Source of the DNA: a virus
Lineage: Duplodnaviria; Heunggongvirae; Uroviricota; Caudoviricetes
Direction: 5' to 3' (one strand)
Length of the DNA stretch: 24,544 nt
Virus record (IMG/VR): IMGVR_UViG_2660238269_000012
Part shown: positions 4,254 through 24,544 of the stretch, one piece after another
Layout of the letters: each line of letters begins with the position of its first letter
How positions within the stretch are numbered: the stretch's first letter is position 1
Position numbers and translations under genes: made by a program
Notes under the pieces: model-generated
What the model was told of the DNA's origin: nothing
What the model saw: only the letters and a program-made list of their open reading frames with translations
The model's database searches: none

Positions 4254-5401
<1,148 letters not shown>

Positions 5402-6449: not shown

Positions 6450-6510
6450 GAAAAGGTATTTACACAGAATCCTGAACAGGCTCCGATGAGGGCCACAATA
6501 CGGCTGTCAC

Positions 6511-6843: not shown

Positions 6844-6866
6844 AGATTTCTCCTTTTAAAAAAGCA

Positions 6867-6893
6867 CTATCGGCATGCACAAAAAAATCTTTA
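6867..6893 (-). promoter_or_regulatory. sigma-28 (FliA) type promoter upstream of flxA
   Basis: Minus strand reads TAAAGATT, an 11-nt spacer, then GCCGATAG, against consensus TAAAGTTT-N11-GCCGATAA; about 20 nt upstream of the flxA SD and ATG. Confidence 0.7.
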
Positions 6894-7045
6894 ATCGTAT
6901 TTCTTGTGTCATTAATTGTTTGATGTTCAGATTGTTTTCCTCGCGGGCTGGCGCGCCTCAGAAAGTAAAGCTTGTTGACAGGGGTAAACGTTCGGCAATA
7001 ATTTTCTGCCGCATGCGGGTGTTGCATAAAACGTGTTACGTTCCT

Positions 7046-7351
7046 TTATCGACAGGTCAGGTCACCGCTCACCCGCCGACGAGAAAGCAACACTGACATG
7101 CTAAAGCAAAAAATAGATGAATAAGTTGAGTTGTGCATATGTAGCCTGACCGTCACAAAGTATATGGTGTCTGTACCAGTAAGATGATGGCCGGACTCTT
7201 TAAAAACGAGCTGACCTGCACAATACAGGATGGACTTAGCAATGGCTGCTCCTGGCACAAAGCGGACAGTGATCACCGTTCTTACGACTACTTTCTGACT
7301 TCCTTCGTGACTTGCCCTAAGCATGTTGTAGTGCGATACTTGTAATGACAT
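7046..7351 (-). CDS. ydfV: hypothetical protein YdfV-like
   Basis: 101-aa ORF between flxA and relB, the position and length of Qin ydfV; sequence identity not independently verified. Confidence 0.5.
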   Translation of the reverse strand: MSLQVSHYNMLRASHEGSQKVVVRTVITVRFVPGAAIAKSILYCAGQLVFKESGHHLTGTDTIYFVTVRLHMHNSTYSSIFCFSMSVLLSRRRVSGDLTCR

Positions 7352-7375
7352 TTGTAATTACAAGAGGTGTAAGAC
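7320..7375 (+). promoter_or_regulatory. relBE promoter/operator (relO) with TTGTAAT repeats
   Basis: cttgtaatgacatttgtaattacaag directly upstream of the relB ATG: repeated TTGTAAT hexads in inverted arrangement, typical of the RelB-RelE autoregulated operator. Confidence 0.6.
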
Positions 7376-7615
7376 ATGGGTAGCATTAACCTGCGTATTG
7401 ACGATGAACTTAAAGCGCGTTCTTACGCCGCGCTTGAAAAAATGGGTGTAACTCCTTCTGAAGCGCTTCGTCTCATGCTCGAGTATATCGCTGACAATGA
7501 ACGCTTGCCGTTCAAACAGACACTCCTGAGTGATGAAGATGCTGAACTTGTGGAGATAGTGAAAGAACGGCTTCGTAATCCTAAGCCAGTACGTGTGACG
7601 CTGGATGAACTCTGA
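7376..7615 (+). CDS. relB: RelB antitoxin (type II TA)
   Basis: 79-aa protein MGSINLRIDDELKARSYAALEKMGVTPSEALRLMLEYIADNERLPF... recognised as RelB; stop overlaps the relE start (ATGA). Confidence 0.95.
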   Translation: MGSINLRIDDELKARSYAALEKMGVTPSEALRLMLEYIADNERLPFKQTLLSDEDAELVEIVKERLRNPKPVRVTLDEL

Positions 7616-7902
7616 TGGCGTATTTTCTGGATTTTGACGAGCGGGCACTAAAGGAATGGCGAAAGCTGGGCTCGACGGTACGTGAACAGTTGAAAAAGAA
7701 GCTGGTTGAAGTACTTGAGTCACCCCGGATTGAAGCAAACAAGCTCCGTGGTATGCCTGATTGTTACAAGATTAAGCTCCGGTCTTCAGGCTATCGCCTT
7801 GTATACCAGGTTATAGACGAGAAAGTTGTCGTTTTCGTGATTTCTGTTGGGAAAAGAGAACGCTCGGAAGTATATAGCGAGGCGGTCAAACGCATTCTCT
7901 GA
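7615..7902 (+). CDS. relE: RelE mRNA interferase toxin (type II TA)
   Basis: 95-aa protein MAYFLDFDERALKEWRKLGSTVREQLKKKLVEVLESPRIEANKLRG... recognised as RelE. Confidence 0.95.
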   Translation: MAYFLDFDERALKEWRKLGSTVREQLKKKLVEVLESPRIEANKLRGMPDCYKIKLRSSGYRLVYQVIDEKVVVFVISVGKRERSEVYSEAVKRIL

Positions 7903-7973
7903 ACCAAAGCATGACATCTCTGTTTCGCACCGAAGGTGACACTTCTGCTTTGCGTTGACAGGAGAAGCAGGCT

Positions 7974-8129
7974 ATGAAGCAGCAAAAGGCGATGTTAATC
8001 GCCCTGATCGTCATCTGTTTAACCGTCATAGTGACGGCACTGGTAACGAGGAAAGACCTCTGCGAGGTACGAATCCGAACCGGCCAGACGGAGGTCGCTG
8101 TCTTCACAGCTTACGAACCTGAGGAGTAA
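7974..8129 (+). CDS. hokD: Hok-family small membrane toxin HokD (RelF)
   Basis: 51-aa ORF MKQQKAMLIALIVICLTVIVTALVTRKDLCEVRIRTGQTEVAVFTAYEPEE; too short for the supplied ORF track, found by direct translation. SD GGAGAAG upstream. Confidence 0.9.
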   Translation: MKQQKAMLIALIVICLTVIVTALVTRKDLCEVRIRTGQTEVAVFTAYEPEE

Positions 8130-8197
8130 GAGACCCGGCGGGGGAGAAATCCCTCGCCACCTCTGATGTGGCAGGCATCCTCAACGCACCCGCACTT

Positions 8198-8225
8198 AAC
8201 CCGCTTCGGCGGGTTTTTGTTTTTA
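8198..8225 (+). terminator. rho-independent terminator downstream of hokD
   Basis: aacccgc-ttcg-gcgggtt stem-loop (7-bp GC-rich stem, UUCG loop) followed by tttttgttttt. Confidence 0.7.
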
Positions 8226-8345
8226 TTTTCAACGCGTTTGAAGTTCTGGACGGTGCCGGAATAGAATCAAAAATACTTAAGTAGCGCGCAGGGATAAGAG
8301 GGATGGTCCCTTAAAGGGGAGAGCTAATTATCCGGAAGGATTCTG

Positions 8346-8597
8346 ATGATGAACATCGAAGAACTGCGTAAAATTTTTTGTGAAGATGGCCTCTATGCTG
8401 TGTGCGTTGAAAATGGAAATCTTGTTAGTCATTACCGCATTATGTGTTTGCGAAAGAATGGGGCTGCGTTAATTAATTTTGTGGATGCTCGGGTCACGGA
8501 CGGATTTATCTTGCGCGAAGGTGAGTTTGTCACTTCATTACAGGCATTGAAAGAGATCGGAATAAAAGCTGGCTTTTCTGCTTTTTCAGGAGAATAA
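8346..8597 (+). CDS. rem: Rem-like small protein
   Basis: 83-aa ORF MMNIEELRKIFCEDGLYAVCVENGNLVSHYRIMCL...; same position and length as Qin rem. Confidence 0.8.
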   Translation: MMNIEELRKIFCEDGLYAVCVENGNLVSHYRIMCLRKNGAALINFVDARVTDGFILREGEFVTSLQALKEIGIKAGFSAFSGE

Positions 8598-8663
8598 ACT
8601 CATCTACAATCTTGCGCGGGGCTGAACTCCCGCTGAGTAACACCGTGCCACCGGAGAAAACCG

Positions 8664-8942
8664 ATGGCACGCAACGCAAAATATTACAATTCTGATAATT
8701 CGCCCGTTCTTGCCTGCACGCACGGGCGGTATTCTCACGCATTCAAGTCTGAATGGTTCCAGCACCCTCCATGCACTGCAGAACAGGCCGAATGGCTGAT
8801 TCATTCTTACCGCAGGCGCGGGTTCGAGGTTAAGAAAGCTCTCAGTCTCGACTATCGGCACTGGATAATCTCTGTCAGGCTGCCTTATTCCGAACGCCCA
8901 CCACGTGCGTCCCGCACTTTCCAGCAACGGATCTGGAGGTAA
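8664..8942 (+). CDS. hypothetical protein
   Basis: 92-aa ORF with SD GGAG 7 nt upstream of the ATG; its stop TAA lies inside the SD/GTG start of the downstream ydfU (translational coupling layout). Confidence 0.45.
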   Translation: MARNAKYYNSDNSPVLACTHGRYSHAFKSEWFQHPPCTAEQAEWLIHSYRRRGFEVKKALSLDYRHWIISVRLPYSERPPRASRTFQQRIWR

Positions 8943-8943
8943 C

Positions 8944-9993
8944 GTGCGGGTATTACTTAGACCTGTTCTGGTGCCTGAGCTTGGGCTGGTGGTCCTTAAG
9001 CCGGGCCGTGAATCCATACAGATATTTCATAATCCTCGAGTGCTGGTGGAACCGGAACCAAAAAGCATGCGTAATCTGCCATCCGGAGTCGTTCCTGCCG
9101 TTCGCCAGCCGCTGGCGGAAGACAAAACATTGCTGCCGTTTTTTAGTAACGAACGGGTGATTCGTGCTGCTGGCGGCGTTGGCGCATTGTCCGACTGGCT
9201 ATTACGTCATGTTACATCCTGCCAGTGGCCTAATGGCGATTACCATCACACTGAAACAGTCATTCACCGTTATGGTACCGGCGCAATGGTGTTGTGCTGG
9301 CACTGCGACAACCAACTGCGTGACCAGACATCGGAATCACTGGAGCTGCTTGCTCAACAAAATCTGACAGCATGGGTGATTGACGTCATCCGTCACGCAA
9401 TAAGCGGTACGCAGGAGCGGGAATTATCTTTGGCTGAATTATCCTGGTGGGCGGTCTGCAATCAGGTGGTGGATGCACTACCTGAGGCTGTATCGCGTCG
9501 TTCGCTGGGATTACCAGCGGAAAAAATCTGCTCGGTGTACCGCGAAAGCGACATCGTACCGGGAGAGCAGACCGCCACCAGCATATTGAAACAACGCACA
9601 AAAAATCTTGCACCGTTGCCTTACGCCCACCAGCAACAAAAATCACCACAGGAAAAGACGGTGGTAAGCATCACCGTTGATCCAGAGTCTCCGGAATCTT
9701 TCATGAAGCTGCCTAAACGTCGCCGCTGGGTTAAGGAGAAATACACACGTTGGGTTAAGACACAGCCGTGTGCTTGCTGCGGTATGCCAGCCGACGATCC
9801 GCATCATCTGATTGGTCACGGGCAGGGCGGAATGGGAACAAAAGCACATGATCTCTTTGTGTTGCCTTTGTGCAGAAAGCATCACAACGAGCTGCATACG
9901 GATACAGTGGCATTTGAAGATAAGTATGGCTCCCAACTGGAGCTGATATTTCGTTTTATCGATCGCGCGCTGGCAATTGGCGTACTGGCGTAA
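8944..9993 (+). CDS. ydfU: DUF968-family phage protein YdfU-like with C-terminal Cys/His (HNH-like) motif
   Basis: GTG start at 8944 preceded by GGAGG gives a 349-aa product. C-terminus has CACCGMPADDPHHLIGHGQGGMGTKAHDLFVLPLCRKHHNELH. Lies in the nin-region position upstream of Q. Confidence 0.8.
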   Translation: MRVLLRPVLVPELGLVVLKPGRESIQIFHNPRVLVEPEPKSMRNLPSGVVPAVRQPLAEDKTLLPFFSNERVIRAAGGVGALSDWLLRHVTSCQWPNGDYHHTETVIHRYGTGAMVLCWHCDNQLRDQTSESLELLAQQNLTAWVIDVIRHAISGTQERELSLAELSWWAVCNQVVDALPEAVSRRSLGLPAEKICSVYRESDIVPGEQTATSILKQRTKNLAPLPYAHQQQKSPQEKTVVSITVDPESPESFMKLPKRRRWVKEKYTRWVKTQPCACCGMPADDPHHLIGHGQGGMGTKAHDLFVLPLCRKHHNELHTDTVAFEDKYGSQLELIFRFIDRALAIGVLA

Positions 9994-10006
9994 GTGGAGA
10001 ACGAGC

Positions 10007-10759
10007 ATGAACCTTGAAGCCTTACCAAAATATTACTCCCCAAAATCTCCAAAATTGAGCGATGACGCTCCAGCGACAGGCACCGGTTGTTTAACAATTA
10101 CGGATGTAATGGCAGCGCAGGGGATGGTGCAGTCGAAAGCACCACTTGGGTTGGCCTTATTTCTGGCAAAAGTTGGTGTTCAGGACCCTCAGTTTGCGAT
10201 TGAAGGCCTGCTAAATTACGCGATGGCACTGGATAACCCGACATTGAACAAATTGAGTGAAGAAATCCGGTTACAGATTATTCCTTACCTCGTGAGTTTT
10301 GCCTTTGCTGATTACTCCAGGTCTGCGGCAAGTAAGGCTCGCTGTGAGCATTGTTCAGGTACGGGATTTTATAATGTATTGCGCGAAGTGGTGAAACACT
10401 ACAGACGCGGGGAATCTGTAATCAAGGAAGAATGGGTGAAGGAACTATGTCAGCATTGCCATGGTAAGGGCGAAGCCAGCACAGCGTGCAGAGGGTGTAA
10501 GGGTAAAGGGATTGTTCTGGATGAAAAAAGAACCCGGTTTCATGGCGTACCGGTATATAAGATTTGTGGGCGTTGTAATGGAAACCGGTTTAGTCGTTTA
10601 CCGACCACGCTGGCACGACGTCATGTCCAGAAGCTGGTACCAGACCTGACCGATTATCAGTGGTATAAGGGGTATGCGGACGTCATTGGTAAACTGGTAA
10701 CAAAGTGCTGGCAGGAAGAAGCATACGCGGAAGCGCAATTGAGGAAGGTGACGAGATAA
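10007..10759 (+). CDS. quuQ: Q-family late-gene antiterminator
   Basis: Start at MNLEALPKYYSPKSPKLSDDAPATG... (250 aa) with SD GGAG; Cys-rich zinc-binding region (CEHCSGTG, CQHCHGKG, CRGCKGKG, CGRCNG). Position upstream of the lysis genes. Confidence 0.9.
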   Translation: MNLEALPKYYSPKSPKLSDDAPATGTGCLTITDVMAAQGMVQSKAPLGLALFLAKVGVQDPQFAIEGLLNYAMALDNPTLNKLSEEIRLQIIPYLVSFAFADYSRSAASKARCEHCSGTGFYNVLREVVKHYRRGESVIKEEWVKELCQHCHGKGEASTACRGCKGKGIVLDEKRTRFHGVPVYKICGRCNGNRFSRLPTTLARRHVQKLVPDLTDYQWYKGYADVIGKLVTKCWQEEAYAEAQLRKVTR

Positions 10760-10790
10760 ATGATTTTTGCTGAAGATGGCGACATGATGT

Positions 10791-10819
10791 TTGCATTTTT
10801 CAAAAAATATGGATAAAAT
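10791..10819 (+). promoter_or_regulatory. putative late promoter (PR'-like) downstream of Q
   Basis: TTGCAT, 17-bp spacer, TAAAAT, beginning about 30 bp after the quuQ stop. Confidence 0.55.
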
Positions 10820-10864
10820 TTTTTCAACGATGGGCTTTGTATACCCGACGTTAAGAAAAAGTAG

Positions 10865-10888
10865 AAAACCCGCTGATGAGCGGGTTTT
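10865..10888 (+). terminator. rho-independent terminator (tR'-like) about 50 nt downstream of the putative late promoter
   Basis: aaaacccgct-gatg-agcgggtttt: perfect 10-bp stem, 4-nt loop, then a short U-tract gtgcttt. Confidence 0.65.
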
Positions 10889-11180
10889 GTGCTTTAAATG
10901 GGGCAATGGTAATGTTGAATCTCATCCCGGGACTCATGTCTGTTAACTTATTATTTAGCTGGTGACTTGGTTATTTGCCTGATGTTTAAAATGTTTTCTT
11001 CCAGTACAATGTCCCTAAACACAATGAGTCTGCTTATTATATTATTAGCAGAGCTATTACGGCCAAAGTACAGCATAAGCTTTTAAAGCCAATCAACCAG
11101 TCATCAAGACAGACGGGGTTATTCATAAAAACTCTCCATGTGTGATCCGATGGGGCCTGAAATTAAAGCTTTAATATAGC

Positions 11181-11393
11181 TCATGAAAGGTAAACATTGG
11201 CAGCTGAAGGGCCACGCAGACCATTTATCCGGCAAAATTCCACGCGTAATCCGGTGGTAATTTCTTCTGCATCGCGGAGATTGAGCGCTGAAACATGAAG
11301 CTGGACATCGATACGACCATCGGATGGGGTGATAAGACCCTTGCCGCTTTTGCCGTCAAAGGTTTTGACAATTCCTGTCATTTTACGGGACAA
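11181..11393 (-). CDS. cspF: cold-shock protein family CspF
   Basis: 70-aa [39 protein letters not shown]...; CspA-family fold, recognised as CspF. Confidence 0.9.
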
Positions 11394-11664
11394 AAAAATT
11401 CCTTAATACTGATAACTTGGCGCACTATACACACGTTCCTGAAGAAAGCTATAGTTTTTTGATGGGGTTGAAGATGGCTGGATGTCTAAAATAAACATTG
11501 CTTCATATGTTCAACTATGCGTTAATGATTGCGTCGGTTTGAAGAACAGACGATATACGAAGTAGTTTACTAAAGCAGTTCTCATTTCAGGTGTTATTCA
11601 CTTATTCCTTCTTTGAGTCTCTCCAATTAAGTACGAAGTCGTTTCTGTTATGCAAACCATTTAT

Positions 11665-11677
11665 GCCGAAAGGCTCA
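11665..11677 (+). promoter_or_regulatory. CspA-family 5'-UTR upstream box upstream of the cspB SD
   Basis: gccgaaaggctca matches the conserved upstream box GCCGAAAGGCACA found in cold-shock csp 5' UTRs, just upstream of the cspB start. Confidence 0.55.
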
Positions 11678-11693
11678 AGTTAAGGAATGTAGA

Positions 11694-11909
11694 ATGTCAA
11701 ATAAAATGACTGGTTTAGTAAAATGGTTTAACGCTGATAAAGGTTTCGGCTTTATTTCTCCTGTTGATGGTAGTAAAGATGTGTTTGTGCATTTTTCTGC
11801 GATTCAGAATGATAATTATCGAACCTTATTTGAAGGTCAAAAGGTTACCTTCTCTATAGAGAGTGGTGCTAAAGGTCCTGCAGCAGCAAATGTCATCATT
11901 ACTGATTAA
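11694..11909 (+). CDS. cspB: cold-shock protein CspB
   Basis: 71-aa [71 protein letters not shown]. Confidence 0.95.
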
Positions 11910-12189
11910 AATTCATCGCTCGTCTGTATACGATAACGAAGAAGGCTGATGCCTGAGTAGAGATACGGACAGAGTAGTGAATATTGGATCTCTTTAATAA
12001 AAAGTAAGGAGGTCCAATACATGAAACAATGGCTAGCATATTTGGCAAAATCTTAATCAGGAAAAGTATGCTAACCATTGTGGTGAAGTGCAGGTTTGCT
12101 GCATGAATAGTTTTACAGCAGAAGCTAACTGCTGGCATGGCAAAACAAAGTGCGTAAGTGGATGACTCCCACAAAAAGCACCACAATCT

Positions 12190-12215
12190 CAAACCCGCTC
12201 AGGCGGGTTTTTTAT
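12190..12215 (+). terminator. rho-independent terminator
   Basis: aaacccgc-tcag-gcgggttt stem-loop followed by ttttattat; the U-tract is on the plus strand only. Confidence 0.6.
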
Positions 12216-12272
12216 TATCTGCTTTAAATATATTATTAAAATATAAAAAATACTTGTTACTAATAAAATCAA

Positions 12273-12443
12273 TCAGGCTACAGCTTTAAGATTTGTCTGG
12301 AATACTTTGTTGCAATGAGGGCAGATCAAAAGGGCACCTTTTTGTACTCTTGAAAAACTGTGTTCTGACTCTTGGGTGCAGTTTGGGCAGGAACATTTAA
12401 CGAGATAATTACGGCGTGATTTTGAGTTTTTACGTTCTGACAT
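12273..12443 (-). CDS. small zinc-ribbon protein (hypothetical)
   Basis: ORF 12273..12494; the internal Met at 12443 has SD AGGAAA and gives 56 aa MSERKNSKSRRNYLVKCSCPNCTQ...ICPHCNKVF with two CxxC pairs. Confidence 0.5.
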   Translation of the reverse strand: MSERKNSKSRRNYLVKCSCPNCTQESEHSFSRVQKGALLICPHCNKVFQTNLKAVA

Positions 12444-12662
12444 AGGCTTTTCCTGTATAAATGGCCGTATACAGTACACTAAATATGAAAACATTTCTCG
12501 TATTATTATTTTATATATGACTTTCTTTCAAAATAATTACCCACATTTTTAATGTGTATGTTTTTTTAGCGCCGTTGAGAACAACGTGTGCTGTCAAAAC
12601 TACCCCGTAGACTCCGATCTTTTCAAACATATTGCACCATCCGTGTACATCGGGGTGAGGAT

Positions 12663-12878
12663 ATGAAATCAATGGATAAGTTAACAACAGGTGTTGCCTA
12701 TGGCACATCGGCGGGTAATGCTGGTTTCTGGGCATTGCAGTTACTCGATAAAGTAACTCCGTCACAGTGGGCTGCAATCGGTGTGCTGGGTAGCCTGGTT
12801 TTTGGCCTGCTGACGTATCTGACAAATCTTTATTTCAAGATTAAAGAAGACAGGCGTAAGGCTGCGAGAGGAGAGTAA
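12663..12878 (+). CDS. essQ: phage-21-type pinholin (S21-like) with dual-start motif
   Basis: [71 protein letters not shown] (71 aa); resembles phage 21 S pinholin including the antiholin/holin dual start (MKSM / MDK). SD GGTGAGG. Confidence 0.85.
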
Positions 12879-12882
12879 TCCA

Positions 12883-13190
12883 ATGACTCAAGACTATGAA
12901 CTGGTTGTGAAAGGAGTCCGTAATTTTGAGAATAAAGTTACGGTAACTGTAGCCTTACAGGACAAAGAACGCTTTGACGGTGAAATTTTTGACCTGGATG
13001 TCGCCATGGAGCGTGTTGAAGGAGCTGCGCTGGAGTTTTATGAGGCAGCAGCCAGAAGGAGCGTCCGGCAAGTCTTCCTGGAAGTAGCAGAAAAATTGTC
13101 AGAAAAAGTTGAGTCTTATCTGCAGCATCAGTACTCCTTTAAGATTGAAAATCCTGCCAATAAGCACGAGCGTCCTCATCATAAATATCT

Positions 13191-13194
<4 letters not shown>
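12883..13194 (+). CDS. ydfR: YdfR-like protein (DUF1327)
   Basis: 103-aa MTQDYELVVKGVRNFENKVTVTVALQDKERFDGEIFDLDVAMERVEG...; between holin and endolysin as in Qin. Confidence 0.8.
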
Positions 13195-14218
<1,024 letters not shown>

Positions 14219-14580
14219 GGTAATATTAAATCGGAACATTTACATCGCGGAATGTAAAATTTAAATAAAAAGGACTCTTCCATGAGCCAAAATTCCTGAA
14301 ATCTTAAGGGTAAGATAAAAGGTCTTAATCAGAATGACACGTTTTATTAATAAATAAAGCTATTCTTTCATTGCTGTGTTTTTCTTTACAAAAGTAATCC
14401 TTGCTATGGGTGGTTAATCATGCGTTAATGGTGTTCTGGTTTGTTACAAATTTATCTGAAGCAGTCATTGTTATAATTTTATTATTTGTACCTCTTGAGA
14501 TTTCCTTGTTGGTTTTTCTCTCTGATATTTTTTTTCGGACCATTCTGCCCAAGGGCTAATTTCTTCAAAAGGTAATAATT

Positions 14581-14793
14581 ATGTCTAACAAAATGACTGG
14601 TTTAGTGAAATGGTTTAACCCTGAAAAAGGTTTTGGTTTCATCACGCCGAAAGATGGCAGCAAAGATGTGTTTGTCCATTTCTCAGCAATTCAGAGCAAC
14701 GATTTCAAAACATTAACTGAGAATCAGGAAGTTGAATTTGGTATTGAGAACGGACCTAAAGGTCCTGCCGCTGTTCATGTAGTGGCGCTTTGA
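14581..14793 (+). CDS. cspI: cold-shock protein CspI
   Basis: 70-aa [70 protein letters not shown]. Confidence 0.95.
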
Positions 14794-14881
14794 GGTAGAC
14801 AATATTACAAACCATATTCACTTTAGATGCCCGTGTTGTCATGGTTCCCAGTATAGAACATCATCTTTTGATGTTTCTGAC

Positions 14882-14992
14882 ATGAATCCTTTCGGGGCAA
14901 AATGTATCTTTTGTAAATCAATGATGATTACATTTGATAATATTTCACAATACTTAAATGCCAGCCGTCTGTCGTTGGATTTAAAAAAGTGA
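14882..14992 (+). CDS. ynfN: YnfN-like small protein (possibly longer or frameshifted; Cys-rich)
   Basis: First ATG at 14882 gives MNPFGAKCIFCKSMMITFDNISQYLNASRLSLDLKK. The same frame is open upstream to 14783 and encodes RCPCCHGSQY with no ATG/GTG/TTG; an out-of-frame ATG at 14841 is present. Confidence 0.45.
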   Translation: MNPFGAKCIFCKSMMITFDNISQYLNASRLSLDLKK

Positions 14993-14996
14993 AAAT

Positions 14997-15022
14997 GAAG
15001 GCTCCTTCGGGAGCTTTTTTGC
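14997..15022 (+). terminator. rho-independent terminator after ynfN
   Basis: aaggctcc-ttcg-ggagcttt hairpin (UUCG tetraloop) followed by ttttttg. Confidence 0.7.
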
Positions 15023-15064
15023 TTGGTGTCTATTCGATGGATACTCACATACTACGGTAACATC

Positions 15065-15295
15065 ATGAAAAAAATCATAGTTTTTTTTAACTCTGAACCA
15101 GCAGTGGTAGTGCCAGCGATGACTGGAGTTAACACCATCATGCGTGAATATCCAAATGGCGAAAAAACACACCTTACTGTAATGGCCGCAGGGTTTCCAT
15201 CTCTGACCGGAGATCATAAAGTCATTTATGTAGCCGCGGATCGACATGTTACTTCAGAAGAAATTCTGGAAGCAGCAATAAGGCTCTTGAGTTGA
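15065..15295 (+). CDS. hypothetical protein
   Basis: 76-aa ORF from the internal ATG at 15065 (MKKIIVFFNSEPAVVVPAMTGV...); weak SD; not recognised. Confidence 0.4.
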   Translation: MKKIIVFFNSEPAVVVPAMTGVNTIMREYPNGEKTHLTVMAAGFPSLTGDHKVIYVAADRHVTSEEILEAAIRLLS

Positions 15296-15463
15296 TTTGA
15301 TGCTATTGCATTGATAATTCAGGAAAATTCTCTTTGTCTGTTTGTGTAAAATTTAGACTATCGTATGTTGATTATTGCGATGTTTCATCTTATCTTTTAC
15401 ACGTTTGCACCATATAATCGACTTACTGTGTAACTGGAAAGTCATAACAGACTAAAAGAGGAA

Positions 15464-15640
15464 ATGATGAATATTGAAAACTTAAAAACAAAAGCAGAAG
15501 CAGATATTTCTGAATATATAACAAAAAAAATTATTGAACTTAAGAAAAAGACCGGGAAAGAAGTTACCAGTATTCAGTTTACCGCACGGGAAAAAATGAC
15601 GGGTCTTGAAAGCTATGATGTCAAGATTAATTTAATCTGA
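15464..15640 (+). CDS. gnsB: GnsB-like small protein
   Basis: MMNIENLKTKAEADISEYITKKIIELKKKTGKEVTSIQFTAREKMTGLESYDVKINLI, 58 aa, found by direct translation (below the track length cutoff); SD AGAGGAAA. Confidence 0.8.
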   Translation: MMNIENLKTKAEADISEYITKKIIELKKKTGKEVTSIQFTAREKMTGLESYDVKINLI

Positions 15641-15666
15641 TGTATTCAATAATAAAATTTATCCAT

Positions 15667-15692
15667 AAACCTCGTTTTTACGGGGTTTTGTT
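15667..15692 (+). terminator. putative rho-independent terminator between gnsB and ydfO
   Basis: cctcg-ttttta-cgggg hairpin followed by ttttgttatattt; short stem, moderate support. Confidence 0.4.
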
Positions 15693-15791
15693 ATATTTGA
15701 ATGGTTCCGAATATCTAAATCACAATTGTTGATGGTTTTTATTAAACCAATGCAGTCCGGCTCAGGAGTGAGAGAAGCCGGACGTTATGGT

Positions 15792-16202
15792 TTAGCGTGG
15801 TAAGATCTGTGTAGTTTTCTGGATGCTTTCAGTAAATAGTAATGAATTATCAAAGGTATAGTAATATCTTTTTTGTTCGTGGATATTTGTAACCCACCGA
15901 AAAACTCCTGCTTTAGCAAGGTTTCTTCTGTATTCCTGAAATGTGATCTCTCTGGATTTCAGCTTATTAGAGGTCGTTTCTATAAGATGCCTATCCTTTG
16001 AAAATTTGACAGACACAATGTTTTTTAGGCCCTTTAATAACACTGTATTATCATTTTTTAATACAATATGAACATTCTCTGTGGCTAAATAGTAAATGTA
16101 ATGTGAGACATTGTGACGTTTTAGCTCAGAATAAAACCATTGATAGTTTAAATCGTTTCGAACTTTATCAAATATTTGTTTAAAAATGACTACCTGATCC
16201 AT
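15792..16202 (-). CDS. ydfO: YdfO-like protein (DUF1398)
   Basis: Start at the second Met ([31 protein letters not shown]...) preceded by SD GGAAGG gives 136 aa. Confidence 0.8.
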
Positions 16203-16259
16203 AGATAAACCTTCCATGTGATATGAGGGGGCGTAGTCTGCACGATTATCTAAATTGCT

Positions 16260-16493
16260 TCAATCTGGTCTGACCTGTTTTCTGAGCAATTCAGTAATGT
16301 CACTCTTTTCTTTGTTTGCTTCAGAAGAAACTCTTTTTTCTGAGCACAGTCTCCGGCGGCAGGCTTCAATGACCCAGGCTGAGAAATTCCCGGACCCTTT
16401 TTGCTCAAGAGCGATGTTAATTTGTTCAATCATTTGGTTAGGAAAGCGGATGTTGCGGGTTGTTGTTCTGCGGGTTCTGTTCTTCGTTGACAT
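16260..16493 (-). CDS. ynfO: YnfO-like small basic protein, possible ribbon-helix-helix DNA binder
   Basis: 77-aa MSTKNRTRRTTTRNIRFPNQMIEQINIALEQKGSGNFSAWVIEACRRRL...; a basic N-terminus then strand-helix pattern is compatible with an RHH fold (inference). Confidence 0.7.
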   Translation of the reverse strand: MSTKNRTRRTTTRNIRFPNQMIEQINIALEQKGSGNFSAWVIEACRRRLCSEKRVSSEANKEKSDITELLRKQVRPD

Positions 16494-16539
16494 GAGGTTG
16501 CCCCGTATTCAGTGTCGCTGATTTGTATTGTCTGAAGTT

Positions 16540-16870
16540 GTTTTTACGTTAAGTTGATGCAGATCAATTAATACGATACCTGCGTCATAATTGATTATTT
16601 GACGTGGTTTGATGGCCTCCACGCACGTTGTGATATGTAGATGATAATCATTATCACTTTACGGGTCCTTTCCGGTGATCCGACAGGTTACGGGCGGCGA
16701 CCTCGCGGGTTTTCGCTATTTATGAAAATTTTCCGGTTTAAGGTGTTTCCGTTCTTCTTCGTCGTAACTTAATGTTTTTATTTAAAATACCCCCTGAAAA
16801 GAAAGGAAACGACAGGTGCTGAAAGCGGGCTTTTTGGCCTTTGTCGTTTCCTTTCTCTGTTTTTGTCCGT
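16540..16870 (+). promoter_or_regulatory. lambda-type cos site (cosQ-cosN-cosB) upstream of Nu1
   Basis: Near-identical to the lambda right-end/left-end junction as I recall it: ...gatccgacaggttacg then ggcggcgacctcgcgggttttcgctatttatgaaaattttccggtttaagg...; cohesive-end sequence at about 16692..16703. Confidence 0.85.
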
Positions 16871-16880
16871 GGAATGAACA

Positions 16881-17426
16881 ATGGAAGTCAACAAAAAGCA
16901 GCTGGCTGACATTTTCGGTGCGAGTATCCGTACCATTCAGAACTGGCAGGAACAGGGAATGCCCGTTCTGCGAGGCGGTGGCAAGGGTAATGAGGTGCTT
17001 TATGATTCTGCCGCCGTCATAAAATGGTATGCCGAAAGGGATGCTGAAATTGAGAACGAAAAGCTGCGCCGGGAAGTTGAAGAACTGCGGCAGGCCAGCG
17101 AGACAGATCTCCAGCCAGGGACTATTGAGTACGAACGCCATCGACTTACGCGTGCGCAGGCCGACGCACAGGAGCTGAAAAATGCCAGAGACTCCGCTGA
17201 AGTGGTGGAAACCGCATTCTGTACTTTCGTGCTGTCGCGGATCGCAGGTGAAATTGCCAGTATTCTCGACGGGATCCCCCTGTCGGTGCAGCGGCGTTTT
17301 CCGGAACTGGAAAACCGACATGTTGATTTCCTGAAACGGGATATCATCAAAGCCATGAACAAAGCAGCCGCGCTGGATGAACTGATACCGGGGTTGCTGA
17401 GTGAATATATCGAACAGTCAGGTTAA
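16881..17426 (+). CDS. nohQ: terminase small subunit Nu1
   Basis: 181-aa MEVNKKQLADIFGASIRTIQNWQEQGMPVLRGGGKGNEVLYDSAAVIKWYAERDAEIENEKLRREVEELRQ..., essentially lambda Nu1. Confidence 0.95.
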   Translation: MEVNKKQLADIFGASIRTIQNWQEQGMPVLRGGGKGNEVLYDSAAVIKWYAERDAEIENEKLRREVEELRQASETDLQPGTIEYERHRLTRAQADAQELKNARDSAEVVETAFCTFVLSRIAGEIASILDGIPLSVQRRFPELENRHVDFLKRDIIKAMNKAAALDELIPGLLSEYIEQSG

Positions 17427-17667
17427 CAGGCTGCGGCATTTTGTCCGCGCCGGGCTTCGCTCACTGTTCAGGCCGGAGCCACAGACCGCCGTTGAATGGG
17501 CGGATGCCAATTACTATCTCCCGAAAGAATCCGCATACCAGGAAGGGCGCTGGGAAACACTGCCCTTTCAGCGGGCCATCATGAATGCGATGGGCAGCGA
17601 CTACATCCGCGAGGTGAATGTGGTGAAGTCTGCCCGTGCTGGTTATCCGGCAGGAAACACTGAATGA
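17401..17667 (+). pseudogene. terminase large subunit gpA, N-terminal fragment of about 80 codons, truncated by deletion
   Basis: MNISNSQVNRLRHFVRAGLRSLFRPEPQTAVEWADANYYLPKESAYQEGRWETLPFQRAIMNAMGSDYIREVNVVKSAR matches the lambda gpA N-terminus, then diverges (AGYPAGNTE, stop) where the sequence switches to the start of gene L. Confidence 0.85.
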
Positions 17668-18334
17668 ATGCACCCGTGCGGAGCAGTCGGCCAGCGTGGT
17701 GCTCTGGGAAATCGACCTGACAGAGGTTGGTGGAGAACGTTATTTTTTCTGTAATGAGCAGAACGAAAAAGGTGAGCCGGTCACCTGGCAGGGGCGACAG
17801 TATCAGCCGTATCCCATTCAGGGGAGTGGTTTTGAACTGAATGGCAAAGGCACCAGTACGCGCCCCACGCTGACGGTTTCTAACCTGTACGGTATGGTCA
17901 CCGGGATGGCGGAAGATCTGCAGAGTCTGGTCGGCGGAACGGTGGTCCGGCGTAAGGTTTACGCCCGTTTTCTGGATGCGGTGAACTTCGTCAACGGAAA
18001 CAGTGACGCCGATCCGGAGCAGGAGGTGATCAGCCGCTGGCGCATCGAGCAGTGCAGCGAACTGAGCGCGGTCAGTGCCTCCTTTGTGCTCTCCACACCG
18101 ACGGAAACGGATGGTGCCGTTTTTCCGGGGCGCATCATGCTGGCTAATACCTGCACCTGGACCTATCGCGGTGATGAGTGCGGTTATCACGGTCCGGCTG
18201 TCGCGGATGAATATGACCAGCCGACGTCCGATATCACGAAGGATAAATGCAGCAAATGCCTGAGCGGCTGTAAGTTTCGCAATAACGTCGGCAACTTTGG
18301 CGGCTTCCTTTCCATTAACAAACTTTCGCAGTAA
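17636..18334 (+). CDS. tail tip protein gpL homolog (native ATG replaced; GTG at junction)
   Basis: 232-aa product (M)LVIRQETLNECTRAEQSASVVLWEIDLTEVGGERYFFCNEQ..., near-identical to lambda L from residue 4. The first codons derive from the A/L deletion junction. Confidence 0.85.
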   Translation: MLVIRQETLNECTRAEQSASVVLWEIDLTEVGGERYFFCNEQNEKGEPVTWQGRQYQPYPIQGSGFELNGKGTSTRPTLTVSNLYGMVTGMAEDLQSLVGGTVVRRKVYARFLDAVNFVNGNSDADPEQEVISRWRIEQCSELSAVSASFVLSTPTETDGAVFPGRIMLANTCTWTYRGDECGYHGPAVADEYDQPTSDITKDKCSKCLSGCKFRNNVGNFGGFLSINKLSQ

Positions 18335-18339
18335 ATCCC

Positions 18340-20388
18340 ATGACAGAGACAGAATCAGCGATTCTGGCGCACGCCCGGCGATGTGCGCCAGCAGAGTCGT
18401 GCGGCTTCGTGGTGAGAACGCCGGAGGGAGAGGGGAATACCAACATCTCCGGTGTCACGGTGGTGTTCCGTGCCGGTGAGCAGGAGCAGACACCGCCGGA
18501 GGGGTTTGAATCCTCCGGCTCCGAGACGGTGCTGGGTACGGAAGTGAAATATGACACGCCGATCACCCGCACCATTACGTCTGCAAACATCGACCGTCTG
18601 CGCTTTACCTTCGGTGTGCAGGCACTGGTGGAAACCACCTCAAAGGGGGACAGGAATCCGTCGGAAGTTCGCCTGCTGGTTCAGATACAACGTAACGGTG
18701 GCTGGGTGACGGAAAAAGACATCACCATTAAGGGCAAAACCACCTCGCAGTATCTGGCCTCGGTAGTGGTGGATAATCTGCCGCCGCGCCCGTTCAACAT
18801 CCGGATGCGCAGGATGACGCCGGACAGCACCACAGACCAGCTGCAGAACAAAACGCTCTGGTCGTCATACACCGAAATCATCGATGTGAAACAGTGCTAC
18901 CCGAACACGGCACTGGTCGGCGTACAGGTGGATTCGGAGCAGTTCGGCAGCCAGCAGGTGAGCCGTAATTATCATCTTCGCGGGCGTATTCTGCAGGTGC
19001 CGTCGAACTATAACCCGCAGACGCGGCAATACAGCGGTATCTGGGACGGAACGTTTAAGCCAGCATACAGCAACAACATGGCCTGGTGTCTGTGGGATAT
19101 GCTGACCCACCCGCGCTACGGCATGGGTAAACGTCTTGGTGCGGCAGATGTGGATAAATGGGCGCTGTATGTCATCGGCCAGTGTTGCGACCAGTCGGTG
19201 CCGGACGGTTTTGGCGGCACGGAGCCGCGCATCACCTGTAATGCCTGGCTGACCACACAGCGTAAGGCGTGGGATGTTCTCAGTGATTTCTGCTCGGCGA
19301 TGCGCTGTATGCCGGTATGGAACGGGCAGACGCTGACGTTCGTGCAGGACCGACCATCAGATAAGGTGTGGACCTATAACCGCAGTAATGTGGTGATGCC
19401 GGATGATGGCGCGCCGTTCCGCTACAGCTTCAGCGCCCTGAAGGACCGCCATAATGCCGTTGAGGTGAACTGGATTGACCCGGATAACGGCTGGGAGACG
19501 GCGACAGAGCTTGTGGAGGACACGCAGGCCATTGCCCGTTACGGTCGTAACGTCACGAAGATGGATGCCTTTGGCTGTACCAGGCGGGGGCAGGCGCACC
19601 GAGCCGGGCTGTGGCTGATTAAAACGGAACTGCTGGAAACGCAGACCGTGGACTTCAGCGTGGGTGCCGAAGGGCTTCGCCATGTACCAGGTGATGTCAT
19701 TGAAATCTGTGATGATGACTATGCGGGGATCAGCATCGGCGGGCGCGTGCTGGCGGTGAACAGCCAGACGCGGACACTGACGCTCGACCGTGAAATCACG
19801 CTGCCATCCTCCGGCACCACGCTGATAAGCCTGGTTGACGGGCAGGGTAATCCGGTGAGCGTGGAGGTCCAGTCCGTCACCGACGGCGTGAAGGTGAAAA
19901 TGAGCCGGGTTCCTGACGGCGTTGCCGAGTACAGCGTGTGGGGGCTGAAGCTGCCGACGCTGCGTCAGCGCCTGTTCCGCTGTGTGAGTATCCGTGAGAA
20001 CGATGACGGTACGTATGCCATCACTGCCGTGCAGCATGTACCGGAGAAAGAAGCCATCGTGGATAACGGGGCGCACTTTGACGGTGACCAGAGCGGCACG
20101 GTGAATGGTGTCACGCCGCCAGCAGTTCAGCACCTGACCGCAGAAGTCACCGCAGACAGCGGGGAATACCAGGTGCTGGCGCGCTGGGACACGCCGAAGG
20201 TGGTGAAGGGGGTGAGCTTTATGCTTCGCCTGACCGTGGCAGCGGACGACGGCAGTGAGCGGTTGGTCAGCACGGCCCGGACGACGGAAACCACATATCG
20301 CTTCACGCAGCTGGCGCTGGGAAATTACAGGCTGACAGTCCGGGCGGTAAATGCATGGGGACAGCCGGTGCACATACCCATTCGATGA
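18340..20388 (+). pseudogene. in-frame fusion of gpK N-terminus (about 30 aa) to an internal segment of the central tail fibre gpJ, which is also truncated at its C-terminus
   Basis: Starts MTETESAILAHARRCAPAESCGFVV (JAB/MPN-type K N-terminus), then from ...EG-NTNISGVTVVFRAGEQEQTPPEG... follows lambda J (roughly residues 58-640), ending with 7 non-J codons at the stf junction. Confidence 0.8.
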
Positions 20389-20663
20389 CATTTGTTTCAG
20401 GTGGTTCCAGTGGTGCTCCGGGAAGTGGATCACCTGATTATTCTAAATACAGTGTTAACACTTCTTCTGCAGGCGCTCATACGCACTCTGTATCGGGTAC
20501 TGCTGCAAGCGCAGGTGCACACGCACATACTGTCGGTATTGGTGCTCATACGCACTCCGTTGCGATTGGTTCACATGGACATACCATCACCGTTAACGCT
20601 GCTGGTAACGCGGAAAACACCGTCAAAAACATCGCATTTAACTATATTGTGAGGCTTGCGTAA
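20355..20663 (+). pseudogene. side tail fibre (Stf) C-terminal fragment with His-rich GAHTHS repeats
   Basis: ...[65 protein letters not shown] matches the lambda Stf C-terminus; joined out of frame to the J fragment. Confidence 0.8.
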
Positions 20664-21238
20664 TGGCATTCAGAATGAGTGAACAACCACGGACCATAAA
20701 AATTTATAATCTGCTGGCCGGAACTAATGAATTTATTGGTGAAGGTGACGCATATATTCCGCCTCATACAGGTCTGCCAGCAAACAGTACCGATATTGCA
20801 CCGCCAGATATTCCGGCAGGCTTCGTGGCTGTTTTCAACAGTGATGAGGCATCGTGGCATCTCGTTGAAGATCATCGGGGTAAAACGGTTTATGACGTGG
20901 CTTCCGGCGACGCGTTATTTATTTCTGAACTCGGTCCGTTACCGGAAAATGTTACCTGGTTATCGCCGGGAGGGGAATATCAGAAGTGGAACGGCACAGC
21001 CTGGGTGAAGGATACGGAAGCAGAAAAACTGTTCCGGATCCGGGAGGCGGAAGAAACAAAAAACAGCCTGATGCAGATAGCCAGTGAGCATATAGCGCCG
21101 CTTCAGGATGCTGTGGATCTGGAGATCGCAACGGAGGAAGAAACCTTGTTGCTGGAAGCCTGGAAAAAGTATCGGGTGTTGCTGAACCGTGTTGATACAT
21201 CAACTGCACCGGATATTGAATGGCCAGCACTGCCGTAG
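20663..21238 (+). CDS. tfa: tail fibre assembly protein Tfa
   Basis: 191-aa [44 protein letters not shown]..., near-identical to lambda Tfa; start overlaps the stf stop (TAATGG). Confidence 0.9.
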
Positions 21239-21334
21239 GGTAAAACATATAAATTCTATAATTAGATGTATCTCTCCATTTACGGCAAGGAAGGGGCTTG
21301 GAAGACGTAAAGCATCTCACACCGAGATTATTTT

Positions 21335-21925
21335 TTATATGTCAGGTGTCTGAAGTTTTGCTTTGGCTCTTAAAATGGTTTGCCGCGAGGTTTTGAATTC
21401 CCGGGCAATGGCACTTATACTTACACCTGACTTAATTCGTTCGAATACCACCTGTTTCTGTTCTTCATTTAACACAGGTGGTCGACCAAAACGTTTCCCT
21501 GCGCCGCGGGCTCTTACTATCCCGGAATGAGTGCGTTCAAGTAAAAGGTCTCGTTCAAATTCAGCGACTGCTGAAATTACGTGCATCATCATTTTTCCTG
21601 CTGGACTGGTCAGGTCAATGCCCCCCAATGCTAAGCAATGCACTCTGATACCTGTTTCGGTCAGTTGTTCCACTGTTTTCCTGATATCCATTGCATTACA
21701 ACCAAGGCGATCCAGTTTTGTCACAATCAATTGATCACCACATTTCAGGCGAGCAAGCAACCGGTTAAAACCAGGACGCTCACTGGTTGCTGCTGAGCCG
21801 CTAATGTGTTCTTCGATTATTTGCTGAGGTTTGATTTTAAAACCTGCACTTTCGATTTCCCGGCGTTGATTTTCGGTGGTCTGATCCAGCGTTGATATCC
21901 GACAGTAAGCAAAAATTCGAGACAT
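21335..21925 (-). CDS. pinQ: serine recombinase DNA invertase (Pin/Gin/Hin family)
   Basis: 196-aa [44 protein letters not shown]...: catalytic Ser in the RISTLDQ context, C-terminal HTH. Confidence 0.9.
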
Positions 21926-22241
21926 AGTGAGACTCTATACGAAATTGGTGTTCATATCATAATGCATCTCAGAAAATAATTTTGATTATTTTTGTGCATA
22001 TTTGTATGTACACGTTCGAAAATAAACGAATGCGTATGCAACCCCGTAACTTTGGTGAGACCCAAAATCGATTTTGTGAAAAATGGCTTTAACTCGGTTT
22101 GTTTTTCGAGTTCCGGGCGGACTCAAGGAAGAAGAATAGTGTTGCGTGTTATTTTAACCAGATTTCAAGTTGTTTGGTCGTGGAAAAGTGGAGCAAAATG
22201 TTGTTAAAGTGGAAAAATGATAAAAAAGTAAGTTTATTATA

Positions 22242-22475
22242 TTACATTTTACCATTTAAATTTTGGTTGTCTTTAAGAACTGATATCGCTGTTTGTAATA
22301 ATTCTTTGTTATCCAGCCATGATTTTTTCTTTATGTTTCCTTCAATGTAATCAAGCAATGTTCTGGTATTGATAGGTCTTCCCTGTTTTGCTACTTCCAC
22401 TACAGCATCCCCTAGGATAATTCTGACTTCAGGAAGCTGCGCAGGGAACCACTTTAGGGTGTCTTTTGATTTCAT
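22242..22475 (-). CDS. ydfK: YdfK/YnaE-family small protein
   Basis: Start at MKSKDTLKWFPAQLPEVRIILGDAVVEVAKQGRPINTRTLLDYIEG... (77 aa); position next to pin as in Qin and Rac. Confidence 0.75.
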   Translation of the reverse strand: MKSKDTLKWFPAQLPEVRIILGDAVVEVAKQGRPINTRTLLDYIEGNIKKKSWLDNKELLQTAISVLKDNQNLNGKM

Positions 22476-23255
22476 GAATATATTCCTTAAAATATTATTG
22501 ATTTTCATTGCGATATTGTATGTCTGATTCAGGATATGTTGACTTATACATCGGTTTTGTCTGGGTTATTGGATATGCCAATCCCTAATTTTATTAGAGC
22601 ATGACTAAAAATGCTGAATATGATAAGGAGCGAAGTGATTATCAGTATGCTGTTCATATAGCCTCGAATTAGTAATGTGTTATATATGATATAGTTGACA
22701 ATTTTTATCCTGGGTGTTCTTAAAGTTCGTAGATAAACATTGTCGTTTCAGGTATACAGGAATGCTAACAGATGGCGGCAAAAATCAGGCGGTTTATGGC
22801 GCAAGCTGAAGTGGCAACTGCAAACTATCTTATGCAGAGACTCTACACGGATTAGGTTTAAAAGTATACATAGATAACAGTTTTTATCTGAAGAAGAAAA
22901 ATATCAAGGTGATATAGCCTATATGCCTTTGATGTGGAGGAATGAATGTGATGGGAGTGATGTATCTGAATAGTTGAAAAACCGCAGACACGCCTTATGC
23001 AAGAACGTGCTGCGGTTGGCTGGTAAATTTTTCGATAGTGCGAGTATTGAATGATTTCCAGCCGTTATTGATTTTACGCGTAACTCCATGAAAAAACTAC
23101 TTATCTGTTGAGGAGTTTTTTTGGGGCATATATGGGACAGAAATGGGCCCCAGATAGACACTGAGATCGAACTTAGGATGCTTTTTAAAAAATGCAACTA
23201 TCTGAAAAAACCTAGAAAACGCCAAGGAAACCACAGGATGGGAAAAAACACCTGT

Positions 23256-23269
23256 GAATTATGGATTTC
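23256..23269. repeat. attR core, direct repeat with attL
   Basis: gaattatggatttc; the ATGGATTTC overlaps the point where the ydfJ reading frame resumes. Confidence 0.7.
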
Positions 23270-24544
23270 CAGTTATATTCGCTCGGCGCAGCGTTAGTGT
23301 TTCATGAAATATTTTTTCCTGAATCATCAACGGCAATGGCGTTAATTCTGGCAATGGGAACCTACGGTGCAGGTTATGTGGCGCGTATTGTCGGAGCATT
23401 TATTTTCGGCAAAATGGGCGACAGAATAGGGCGTAAAAAAGTGCTCTTTATTACCATCACCATGATGGGGATCTGTACCACCTTAATTGGTGTGTTACCG
23501 ACCTATGCACAGATTGGTGTTTTTGCACCCATCTTGCTGGTGACGTTGCGTATTATTCAGGGGTTGGGTGCAGGTGCGGAAATTTCCGGTGCCGGTACGA
23601 TGCTGGCGGAATATGCGCCAAAAGGTAAGCGCGGAATTATCTCCTCATTTGTGGCTATGGGAACTAACTGCGGAACCTTGAGCGCAACGGCAATCTGGGC
23701 CTTTATGTTCTTCATTCTCAGTAAAGAGGAACTGCTGGCGTGGGGATGGCGTATACCGTTCCTGGCGAGTGTTGTCGTGATGGTCTTTGCTATCTGGTTG
23801 CGTATGAATCTGAAAGAAAGCCCGGTCTTTGAGAAGGTTAACGACAGTAACCAACCGACAGCAAAACCTGCACCTGCTGGTAGCATGTTCCAGAGCAAAT
23901 CCTTCTGGCTGGCAACAGGGCTGCGTTTTGGTCAGGCGGGTAACTCCGGGTTAATTCAGACTTTCCTTGCAGGCTATTTAGTGCAGACGTTATTGTTTAA
24001 CAAAGCAATTCCAACAGATGCATTGATGATCAGTTCGATTCTCGGCTTTATGACCATTCCGTTCCTTGGTTGGTTATCCGATAAAATTGGTCGCCGGATC
24101 CCGTATATTATTATGAATACCTCCGCGATTGTGCTGGCATGGCCAATGCTTTCTATCATTGTAGATAAAAGCTATGCCCCGAGCACCATTATGGTTGCAC
24201 TGATTGTGATTCATAACTGTGCGGTGCTGGGATTATTTGCTCTGGAAAACATTACCATGGCAGAAATGTTCGGCTGTAAAAACCGCTTTACCCGGATGGC
24301 TATTTCTAAAGAAATTGGTGGTCTTATCGCTTCCGGTTTTGGTCCTATCCTGGCGGGTATTTTCTGCACCATGACGGAATCCTGGTATCCGATCGCCATT
24401 ATGATCATGGCATATTCAGTGATTGGTTTAATCTCTGCGCTGAAAATGCCAGAGGTGAAAGACCGTGATTTAAGTGCGCTGGAAGACGCTGCGGAAGATC
24501 AACCGCGTGTTGTAAGAGCTGCGCAACCTTCCAGAAGTCTGTAA
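23261..24544 (+). pseudogene. ydfJ: 3' portion of MFS transporter ydfJ (ProP-like), separated from its 5' end by the prophage
   Basis: 427-aa ORF with MFS signatures (GKMGDRIGRKKV loop motif, multiple TM segments, WGWRIPF); lacks the first 28 codons, which are at 58..141. Confidence 0.85.

Follow-up and report, generated by a model that had tools for sequence, protein, structure and literature searches.

The question raised by a stretch of 24,544 nucleotides (nt) held as IMG/VR virus record IMGVR_UViG_2660238269_000012 (the window below) is how a lambda-type morphogenesis module came to be reduced to a handful of truncated genes. Its sequence identifies it as the right arm of Qin, the lambda-like cryptic prophage of Escherichia coli, at its insertion site in ydfJ. 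A first-pass annotation, made from the letters alone, had read the module as collapsed by three deletion junctions in a Qin-like prophage, joining A to L (J1), K to J (J2) and J to stf (J3), and comparison with phage lambda and with an intact Qin prophage in strain B379 supports this reading. We conclude that the Qin late operon very probably collapsed through three separate illegitimate deletions, each at 2-4 nt of identity and without a recombinase site, and that it has since been inherited vertically and is non-functional. The junctions and the remnants that adjoin them, including a chimeric open reading frame (ORF) encoding 682 amino acids (aa), are as follows.

17644..17646: junction J1, crossover TAT, from A nt 246 (codon 82) to L codon 4; 12,480 bp deleted
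18430..18431: junction J2, crossover GA, from K codon 31 to J codon 56; 1,424 bp deleted; in frame
20362..20365: junction J3, crossover CAGC, from J codon 701 to stf codon 936; 4,921 bp deleted; +1 shift
17401..17667, + strand: A' stump of 88 codons, made of codons 1-82 of the terminase large subunit gene, 6 out-of-frame L codons and TGA
17636..18334, + strand: L' minor tail protein gene, 232 codons, GTG start (Pfam Phage_tail_L, E=4.7e-101)
18340..18431, + strand: K' stump, the first 31 of the 247 codons of K (C40 peptidase), identical to B379 K to residue 31
18430..20365, + strand: J' core, covering residues 56-700 of tail tip protein J (1,159 residues); identity to B379 J 99.95%
18340..20388, + strand: K'::J' chimeric ORF, 682 aa, 2,049 nt (ORF map and residue map)
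20362..20663, + strand: stf' stump, the final 100 of the 1,035 codons of the side tail fibre gene (Pfam Phage_fiber repeat)

Colinearity with lambda and with intact Qin

Comparison of the window with lambda (NC_001416) by BLASTN gives four colinear blocks that are 94-98% identical and lie in the lambda order. Window 16692-17646 corresponds to lambda 1-956 (98.3%), 17637-18431 to lambda 13430-14224 (96.5%), 18430-20368 to lambda 15670-17608 (94.1%) and 20514-21228 to lambda 21824-22538 (93.8%). Colinearity is broken at exactly three points, and these are the three places that the first-pass annotation had named.

The order cos-Nu1-A ... L-K-I-J-lom-stf-tfa, with nucleotide homology throughout, is that of a lambda-type morphogenesis module, and it is seen in full in B379, the strain to which a search with the J' stump led; its J matches at 100% identity as far as the J3 breakpoint. 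B379 (NZ_CP090456, 2.406-2.430 Mb) carries an undeleted Qin at the same ydfJ locus with 24 late genes, nohA-A-W-B-C-D-E-FI-FII-Z-U-V-G-T-H-M-L-K-I-J-lom-stf-tfa-pinQ, and every block retained in the window is 99.7-100% identical to it, the aligned blocks ranging from 99.75 to 99.95%. B379 thus provides the parental structure at the same locus, from which the window differs in lacking about 18.8 kb in three pieces; B379 itself differs in carrying IS1B, an insertion sequence (IS), between pinQ and ydfK. All of the genes from W to M are gone from the window, in keeping with the earlier statement that the head genes and most of the tail genes between A and L are absent.

The junction bases, microhomologies and deletion sizes were read from a base-by-base comparison with B379. 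All three junctions map onto B379 with colinear flanks, the DNA that lies between the two flanks in B379 is absent, and there are zero filler bases. The crossovers share a few bases of identity (TAT, GA and CAGC, respectively), and there is no long repeat, IS end, att site or invertase site at any of them.

Structure of the junctions

At J1 the window matches B379 A through 17646 (gene nt 246) and L from 17644 (codon 4 onwards), the shared TAT being part of an imperfect 11-nt repeat, GTGYTGGTTAT / ATGCAGGATAT. The deletion takes the rest of A together with W, B, C, Nu3, D, E, FI, FII, Z, U, V, G, T, H and M. As had been proposed, the A frame passes into the start of L and the L ATG becomes GTG: the first three L codons, ATG-CAG-GAT, are replaced by the A-derived GTG-CTG-GTT, and L' is otherwise L. 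There is no Shine-Dalgarno sequence for L', and the ATG, the overlap with M and the coupling to M are lost. A single base close to the crossover sets the window apart from its relatives, in that position 17639 is C in the window and T in B379, P13-6 and 1332KP (NZ_CM173849), changing residue 80 of A' from V to A and being silent in the L' frame.

At J2 the K frame extends to 18431 and that of J starts at 18430, so that they overlap by 2 nt. The deletion removes K codons 32-247, all of I and J codons 1-55, which agrees with the loss of the rest of K, all of I and the J N-terminus in the earlier description. That description was also right about the in-frame fusion and its 682 aa; re-entry into J, which it placed at about residue 58, is at 56/57, and the EG/EG microhomology that it invoked is a loose one, the true overlap being 2 nt. 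Residues 1-31 of the chimera are K 1-31 and residues 32-675 are J 57-700, followed by seven frameshifted residues, PVHIPIR; the product keeps both EG dipeptides (PEGEGN), and the junction residues are TPEGEGNTNISG. Its start is K's own start codon, 5 nt past the L stop.

At J3 the J sequence runs through 20365 and stf begins at 20362. J residues 701-1159, lom and stf codons 1-935 are lost; the removal of lom goes beyond the first-pass account. In that account J was cut at about residue 640, which is corrected here to 700/701, and its out-of-frame join to the last 100 or so codons of stf stands. Beyond J3 the J frame stops 7 codons on, at 20386-20388. We note that on the J side a perfect 10-bp inverted repeat (GGCGATCCGG ... 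CCGGATCGCC) lies 3 nt past the breakpoint in B379 (locus 22104-22136) and is deleted in the window; this stem is among only 24 perfect stems of at least 8 bp in 23.5 kb.

Coding potential of the remnants

The stf' ORF spans 20355-20663 (102 codons, with tail-fibre repeats) and has two possible starts, a J-supplied ATG at 20355 that is in the stf frame and an internal Met codon at 20385; a 92-aa stf' gene is called in public assemblies. The TGA of the chimera overlaps the internal stf' Met codon (ATGA, 20385-20388) and the stf' stop overlaps the tfaQ ATG, which leaves room for translational coupling as far as tfaQ. A short peptide from the stf tip, and TfaQ itself, could still be made in this way. 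Upstream, A' gives a weak match to GpA_ATPase that is confined to its N-terminal part.

The K'::J' product retains internal J domains only (FNIII-A_GpJ, Phage-tail_3 and Ig_J), and no K-type Pfam domain is found in it. Missing from it are the first 55 residues of J, its C-terminal 459 residues and almost the whole of K; of gpJ (TipJ), full-length when functional, residues 56-700 of 1,159 remain, and of gpK, of the C40 peptidase family by PGAP annotation, 31 of 247 residues. In lambda the C-terminal part of J holds the receptor-binding part. In a search for a dedicated promoter or terminator for the chimera, the counts of candidate sites equal the shuffled expectation and no promoter signal stands above chance. 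Upstream, L' is without its ATG and is no longer coupled to M, and expression of the chimera is no more than a possibility. We infer that the ORF is probably a by-product and not a working gene; no sign of function is seen.

Distribution among strains and order of the deletions

Junction-centred queries of 160 nt were compared with 5,426 complete Escherichia coli genomes. J3 is present in 91 of these and J1 in six, namely 1332KP and the five porcine or farm strains P13-6, ETEC1706, ETEC1716, ETEC4073 and VG48B2; J2 is present in none. All six J1 genomes also have J3, and J3 occurs without J1 in many genomes, including AJ1, 300709, NCTC9040, FDAARGOS_1337, BUCT2930 and BS74R-D. Strains with none, one or two of the three junctions all exist. 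Among the annotated relatives is 1332KP, whose Qin is 99.9% identical to the window and shares J1 and J3 base for base; it differs in having K, I and the J N-terminus intact (no J2), T at 17639, and IS1414 between tfaQ and pinQ.

The exact 682-aa chimera is found on 13 other public contigs, whose sources are NCBI draft assemblies (at least six), gut metagenomes and one Logan assembly; the strain of GCA_000942915.1 is one carrier. Every isolate contig among them with enough flanking sequence has J1 and J3. Each J2-bearing assembly examined has C at 17639; J1-only alleles and B379 have T. The nested distribution and the confinement of this C to J2 alleles therefore place the J2 group inside the J1 group, and from this nesting and the linked single-nucleotide polymorphism we infer that the deletions probably arose in the order J3, then J1, then J2. 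Comparison with the Qin prophages of other strains, suggested earlier as a way to order the deletions, thus yields an order.

Reused deletion endpoints

Twelve other Qin alleles and one allele of the Rac prophage were aligned onto B379 to map deletion endpoints. J' boundaries were surveyed with a composite query combining J' and stf'-tfaQ-pinQ; with J' of 1332KP on its own, intact J genes of other prophages dominated the matches. Two positions recur. One is J nt 164-169 (ACTGA/GGGGAATACC; window 18430-18436; B379 locus 20164-20169), which is the right end of five junctions. Its left partners are K in J2 of the window; H nt 146 in AJ1, TB06053, 300709 and WS4437A-1; Nu1 nt 394 in 160-11H1; Nu1 nt 395 in ZYB62, in which J is only 95.6% identical to that of B379; and, in the Rac prophage of Z142-3, a Rac-specific ORF at what is an ordinary ORF end in K-12. 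For this last partner, blastn and tblastn detect no homologue in lambda or Qin.

The other position is Nu1 nt 507 (CTGATA/CCGGGG; nt 504-511; window 17385-17392; B379 locus 5216-5223), which is the left end of five junctions and is intact in the window. Its right partners are A nt 1467 (AJ1/NCTC9040) and J nt 181, 634, 1219 and 1798, the junctions into J being those of 17MR471, FDAARGOS_1337, F829 and BS74R-D; three of the partners share a GATAxCGG(GG) motif. Under a uniform model with the events assumed independent, at least 4 of 11 endpoints falling within 6 nt at J nt 164-169 has p of about 2e-5, and the cluster at Nu1 nt 507 has p of about 1e-6; the sample was drawn from ranked BLAST lists, and independence is inferred from the different partners and not from phylogeny. 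J nt 165 lies 3 nt 5' of a 9-bp imperfect stem (81-nt DNA fold, z = -2.4). An association with hairpins, suggestive at single sites, is not significant over the 25 mapped breakpoints, of which 4 lie near a hairpin against 7% expected. Neither Chi nor invertase cores, native module boundaries or hairpin proximity explains the reuse.

Two of the sister alleles have structures that we describe in their own right. The FDAARGOS_1337 allele (2087-2090) equals the NCTC9040 allele (2087-3377) minus exactly the A'-W-B' fragment that lies between the two junctions of NCTC9040, and would reflect either a second deletion exactly at two existing scars or two events that hit the same sites independently. 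A more complex structure is seen in AJ1 (2087-4648), and likewise in TB06053, 300709 and WS4437A-1, where four colinear internal junctions (Nu1/A, B/C, C/G and H/J) leave short pieces of A, W, B, C, G, T and H in their original order; this fits either serial deletions or one multi-jump template-switching event.

Weighing the alternatives

That the junctions could instead be native gene boundaries of a non-lambda phage, or artefacts of assembly, we regard as virtually excluded; nothing in the comparisons speaks for it. Not one of 282 matching phage records holds the region in a single colinear piece, and all 120 IMG/VR copies of J with sequence to the right of the J2 breakpoint continue normally leftward across nt 165; an intact phage having these junctions as its own boundaries, which would have overturned the first-pass reading, is thus not found among these records. 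The junctions also recur base for base in independent complete genomes and drafts from different laboratories, which argues against an artefact. It is likewise very improbable, to a slightly lesser degree, that K'::J' is a domesticated protein kept by selection, for example one that interferes with incoming lambdoid phages. Such a role would suit the in-frame fusion, the retention of the native K start 5 nt downstream of the L stop, the identity of the 2,049-nt ORF on 13 contigs from several assemblies, and the reported defence role of the neighbouring Qin gene pinQ, whose product is reported to work in trans at the e14 P segment and to prevent phage T2 from adsorbing (PMC12529663, 2025). The allele is rare, however (0 of 5,426 complete genomes), and the identity among its carriers is that expected of a young clone; sister alleles cut J at other places, and the H'/J' join of AJ1 is annotated in different frames. 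The chimera has moreover no promoter-like signal above chance, a lost L' start context upstream, and a product without the first 55 and the C-terminal 459 residues of J, the latter holding the receptor-binding part in lambda. Two observations do weigh against a simple succession of three deletions. One is a metagenome contig (ENA ERZ27239412 k119_4702, a MEGAHIT assembly, positions 1-12049) that has J2 and J3 and no J1; upstream of an identical chimera it carries a full head-tail block, from portal through H-M-L, and would break the simple order. It speaks for the order J3, J2, J1, with 1332KP having reacquired K-I-J' from an intact lambdoid prophage through homologous recombination, an alternative to which segment exchange among lambdoid prophages by homologous recombination (PMC3945230) and the 7 mismatches between 1332KP and B379 across L-K-I-J' also lend themselves. 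Nevertheless, this order appears unlikely. Because the left 7.4 kb of the contig is only 96.7% identical to B379 Qin, near identity beginning at the M/L boundary, the contig would be either a recombinant prophage or a chimeric assembly joined in L, a divergence of 3.3% with a switch at that boundary being the pattern of such a join. The derived C at 17639 is found only in J2 alleles and J1-only alleles keep the parental T; J1 without J2 is seen in 6 complete genomes, and J2 without J1 in no isolate genome.

The other observation is that the J-side endpoint of J2 is common to four other junctions within 0-5 nt, with different left partners, so that J2 may be something other than a purely random event at microhomology. 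The alternative is a site-preferring process behind J2 and perhaps other junctions, that is, a break, a fork stall or an enzyme cleavage at J nt 164-169, the other end of the deletion then lying wherever 2-5 nt of homology is found. We give this a little less than an even chance. The five different left partners, the low probability of the cluster under the uniform model and the adjacent imperfect stem all point to it. Against it, the site resembles nothing recognised: there is no Chi and no gix/pix-type core, by eye it is unlike lambda att, Ter or IS ends, hairpin proximity is not significant, and both the independence of the events and the sampling carry the limits given above for the uniform model. 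Somewhat more tentatively, the decay of lambdoid prophages may use hot-spot endpoints that are reused independently across strains, and even in Rac, at J nt 164-169, Nu1 nt 507-511 and J nt 632-637, in which case J2 may be one such event.

A model for the decay

Each of the illegitimate deletions is a simple excision of colinear parental DNA at the microhomology TAT, GA or CAGC. The excisions would have occurred by RecA-independent slippage, template switching or end joining, and the collapsed region would since have been passed on vertically as non-functional DNA. Other candidate mechanisms were considered and set aside. Deletion adjacent to an IS is not indicated, no IS abutting any of the three junctions; the IS copies in relatives (IS1414, IS3, IS903B, ISCro1 and IS1B) are sited elsewhere. 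Resection by RecBCD limited by Chi was rejected as the source of the fixed endpoints, with no GCTGGTGG or its complement in B379 coordinates 4,000-29,000 and no consistent distance of 7-of-8 Chi matches from the endpoints. Deletion by a Pin-type invertase at quasi-sites was also rejected, as no AAACCNNGGTTT-type core lies near any junction; two one-mismatch matches are present in the window, away from the junctions and at chance level, and by eye the J nt 165 site is a poor match to hix/gix half-sites. A search of the literature returned Qin background only and nothing on these junctions.

Genomic context

The remaining features of the late region are listed here.

16692..16880, + strand: cos region and late-operon leader, equal to lambda nt 1-190 (within the alignment of window 16692-17646)
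16881..17426, + strand: nohA, an intact homologue of Nu1, the terminase small subunit, 181 aa (Pfam Phage_Nu1, E=3.9e-101, full length)
20663..21238, + strand: tfaQ tail fibre assembly gene, intact, the right neighbour of the collapsed module (Pfam Caudo_TAP, E=2.4e-43)
21335..21925, - strand: pinQ serine invertase gene, intact, 196 aa (ORF map; pinQ annotation in relatives)

The name nohA is that used in 1332KP and B379, and tfaQ is likewise so annotated in relatives. Window 8801-24544 is 99.9% identical to and colinear with the annotated Qin locus of 1332KP, save one gap and one IS, with window 8801-18431 corresponding to 1332KP locus 1-9632 at 99.97% identity. Upstream the Qin order is found, comprising ydfU, the Q antiterminator, cspF/cspB, essQ, ydfR, rrrQ, rzpQ, cspI, gnsB, ydfO, ynfO and nohA; in the ORF map of 15-24.5 kb, ynfO and ydfO lie at the left end on the minus strand and are followed by the Nu1 homologue. 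The right end carries pinQ, ydfK and a 5'-truncated ydfJ next to ydfK, ynfT and pinQ. By the ORF map ydfK is at 22242-22508 and the truncated ydfJ' ORF runs from 23261 to the window end, placing the insertion in ydfJ; this stretch is colinear at 99.9% with the annotated loci of 1332KP, B379 and K-12.

The stf'-tfaQ sequence is present in a single copy and just 97 nt separate tfaQ from pinQ, an arrangement that does not constitute an invertible segment; no AAACCNNGGTTT-type (gix/pix) core is found near 20300-22000, the surroundings of pinQ included. We note that window 5435-6492 (1,058 bp) is 99.7% identical to the IS1414 copy of 1332KP, which there is sited between tfaQ and pinQ. In the window this sequence lies 15 kb leftward, within early Qin, and nothing interrupts the tfaQ-pinQ spacer. 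The early Qin region of neighbouring complete genomes carries IS30, ISNCY, ISEc52 and IS3.

Comparison with known systems

The window presents a case of ordinary deletional decay of a well-known cryptic prophage, a kind of feature already known, and the mapped deletions change no concept. They provide a fully mapped example of structural-gene loss in a cryptic prophage, with an intact relative, intermediate alleles and an order of events. The map is useful for annotation, in which PGAP already marks these pieces as partial genes, and the K'::J' junction together with C at 17639 defines a small E. coli clade and may serve as a lineage marker. Endpoint reuse, if confirmed by an exhaustive survey, would give the study of illegitimate-recombination hot spots in the E. 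coli chromosome a natural system defined by sequence, and hot spots, if real, would suggest that a site-preferring mechanism of breakage or stalling, so far unrecognised, acts on the sequences concerned.

The Qin of K-12 MG1655 resembles the window in its ydfJ site, in its flanking genes (ydfU ... nohA ... tfaQ, pinQ, ydfK) and in having lost the morphogenesis block. It differs in that a single large deletion, beginning at A codon 3 (B379 coordinate 5241), extends into stf, of which the last 320 codons remain; the scar lies at position 6162 of the reverse complement of the K-12 locus. None of J1, J2 and J3 is present in K-12, and it is therefore a poor reference for the window allele, in which A', L, K' and 645 J codons survive.

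Short-homology illegitimate recombination and slipped misalignment are familiar sources of deletions in E. coli and lambda. The window deletions resemble short-homology illegitimate recombination in their 2-5 nt of identity, the lack of a recombinase site and the colinear excision. They differ from simple fork slippage in their size, 1.4-12.5 kb being long for slippage, and in that some of the endpoints are reused across strains.

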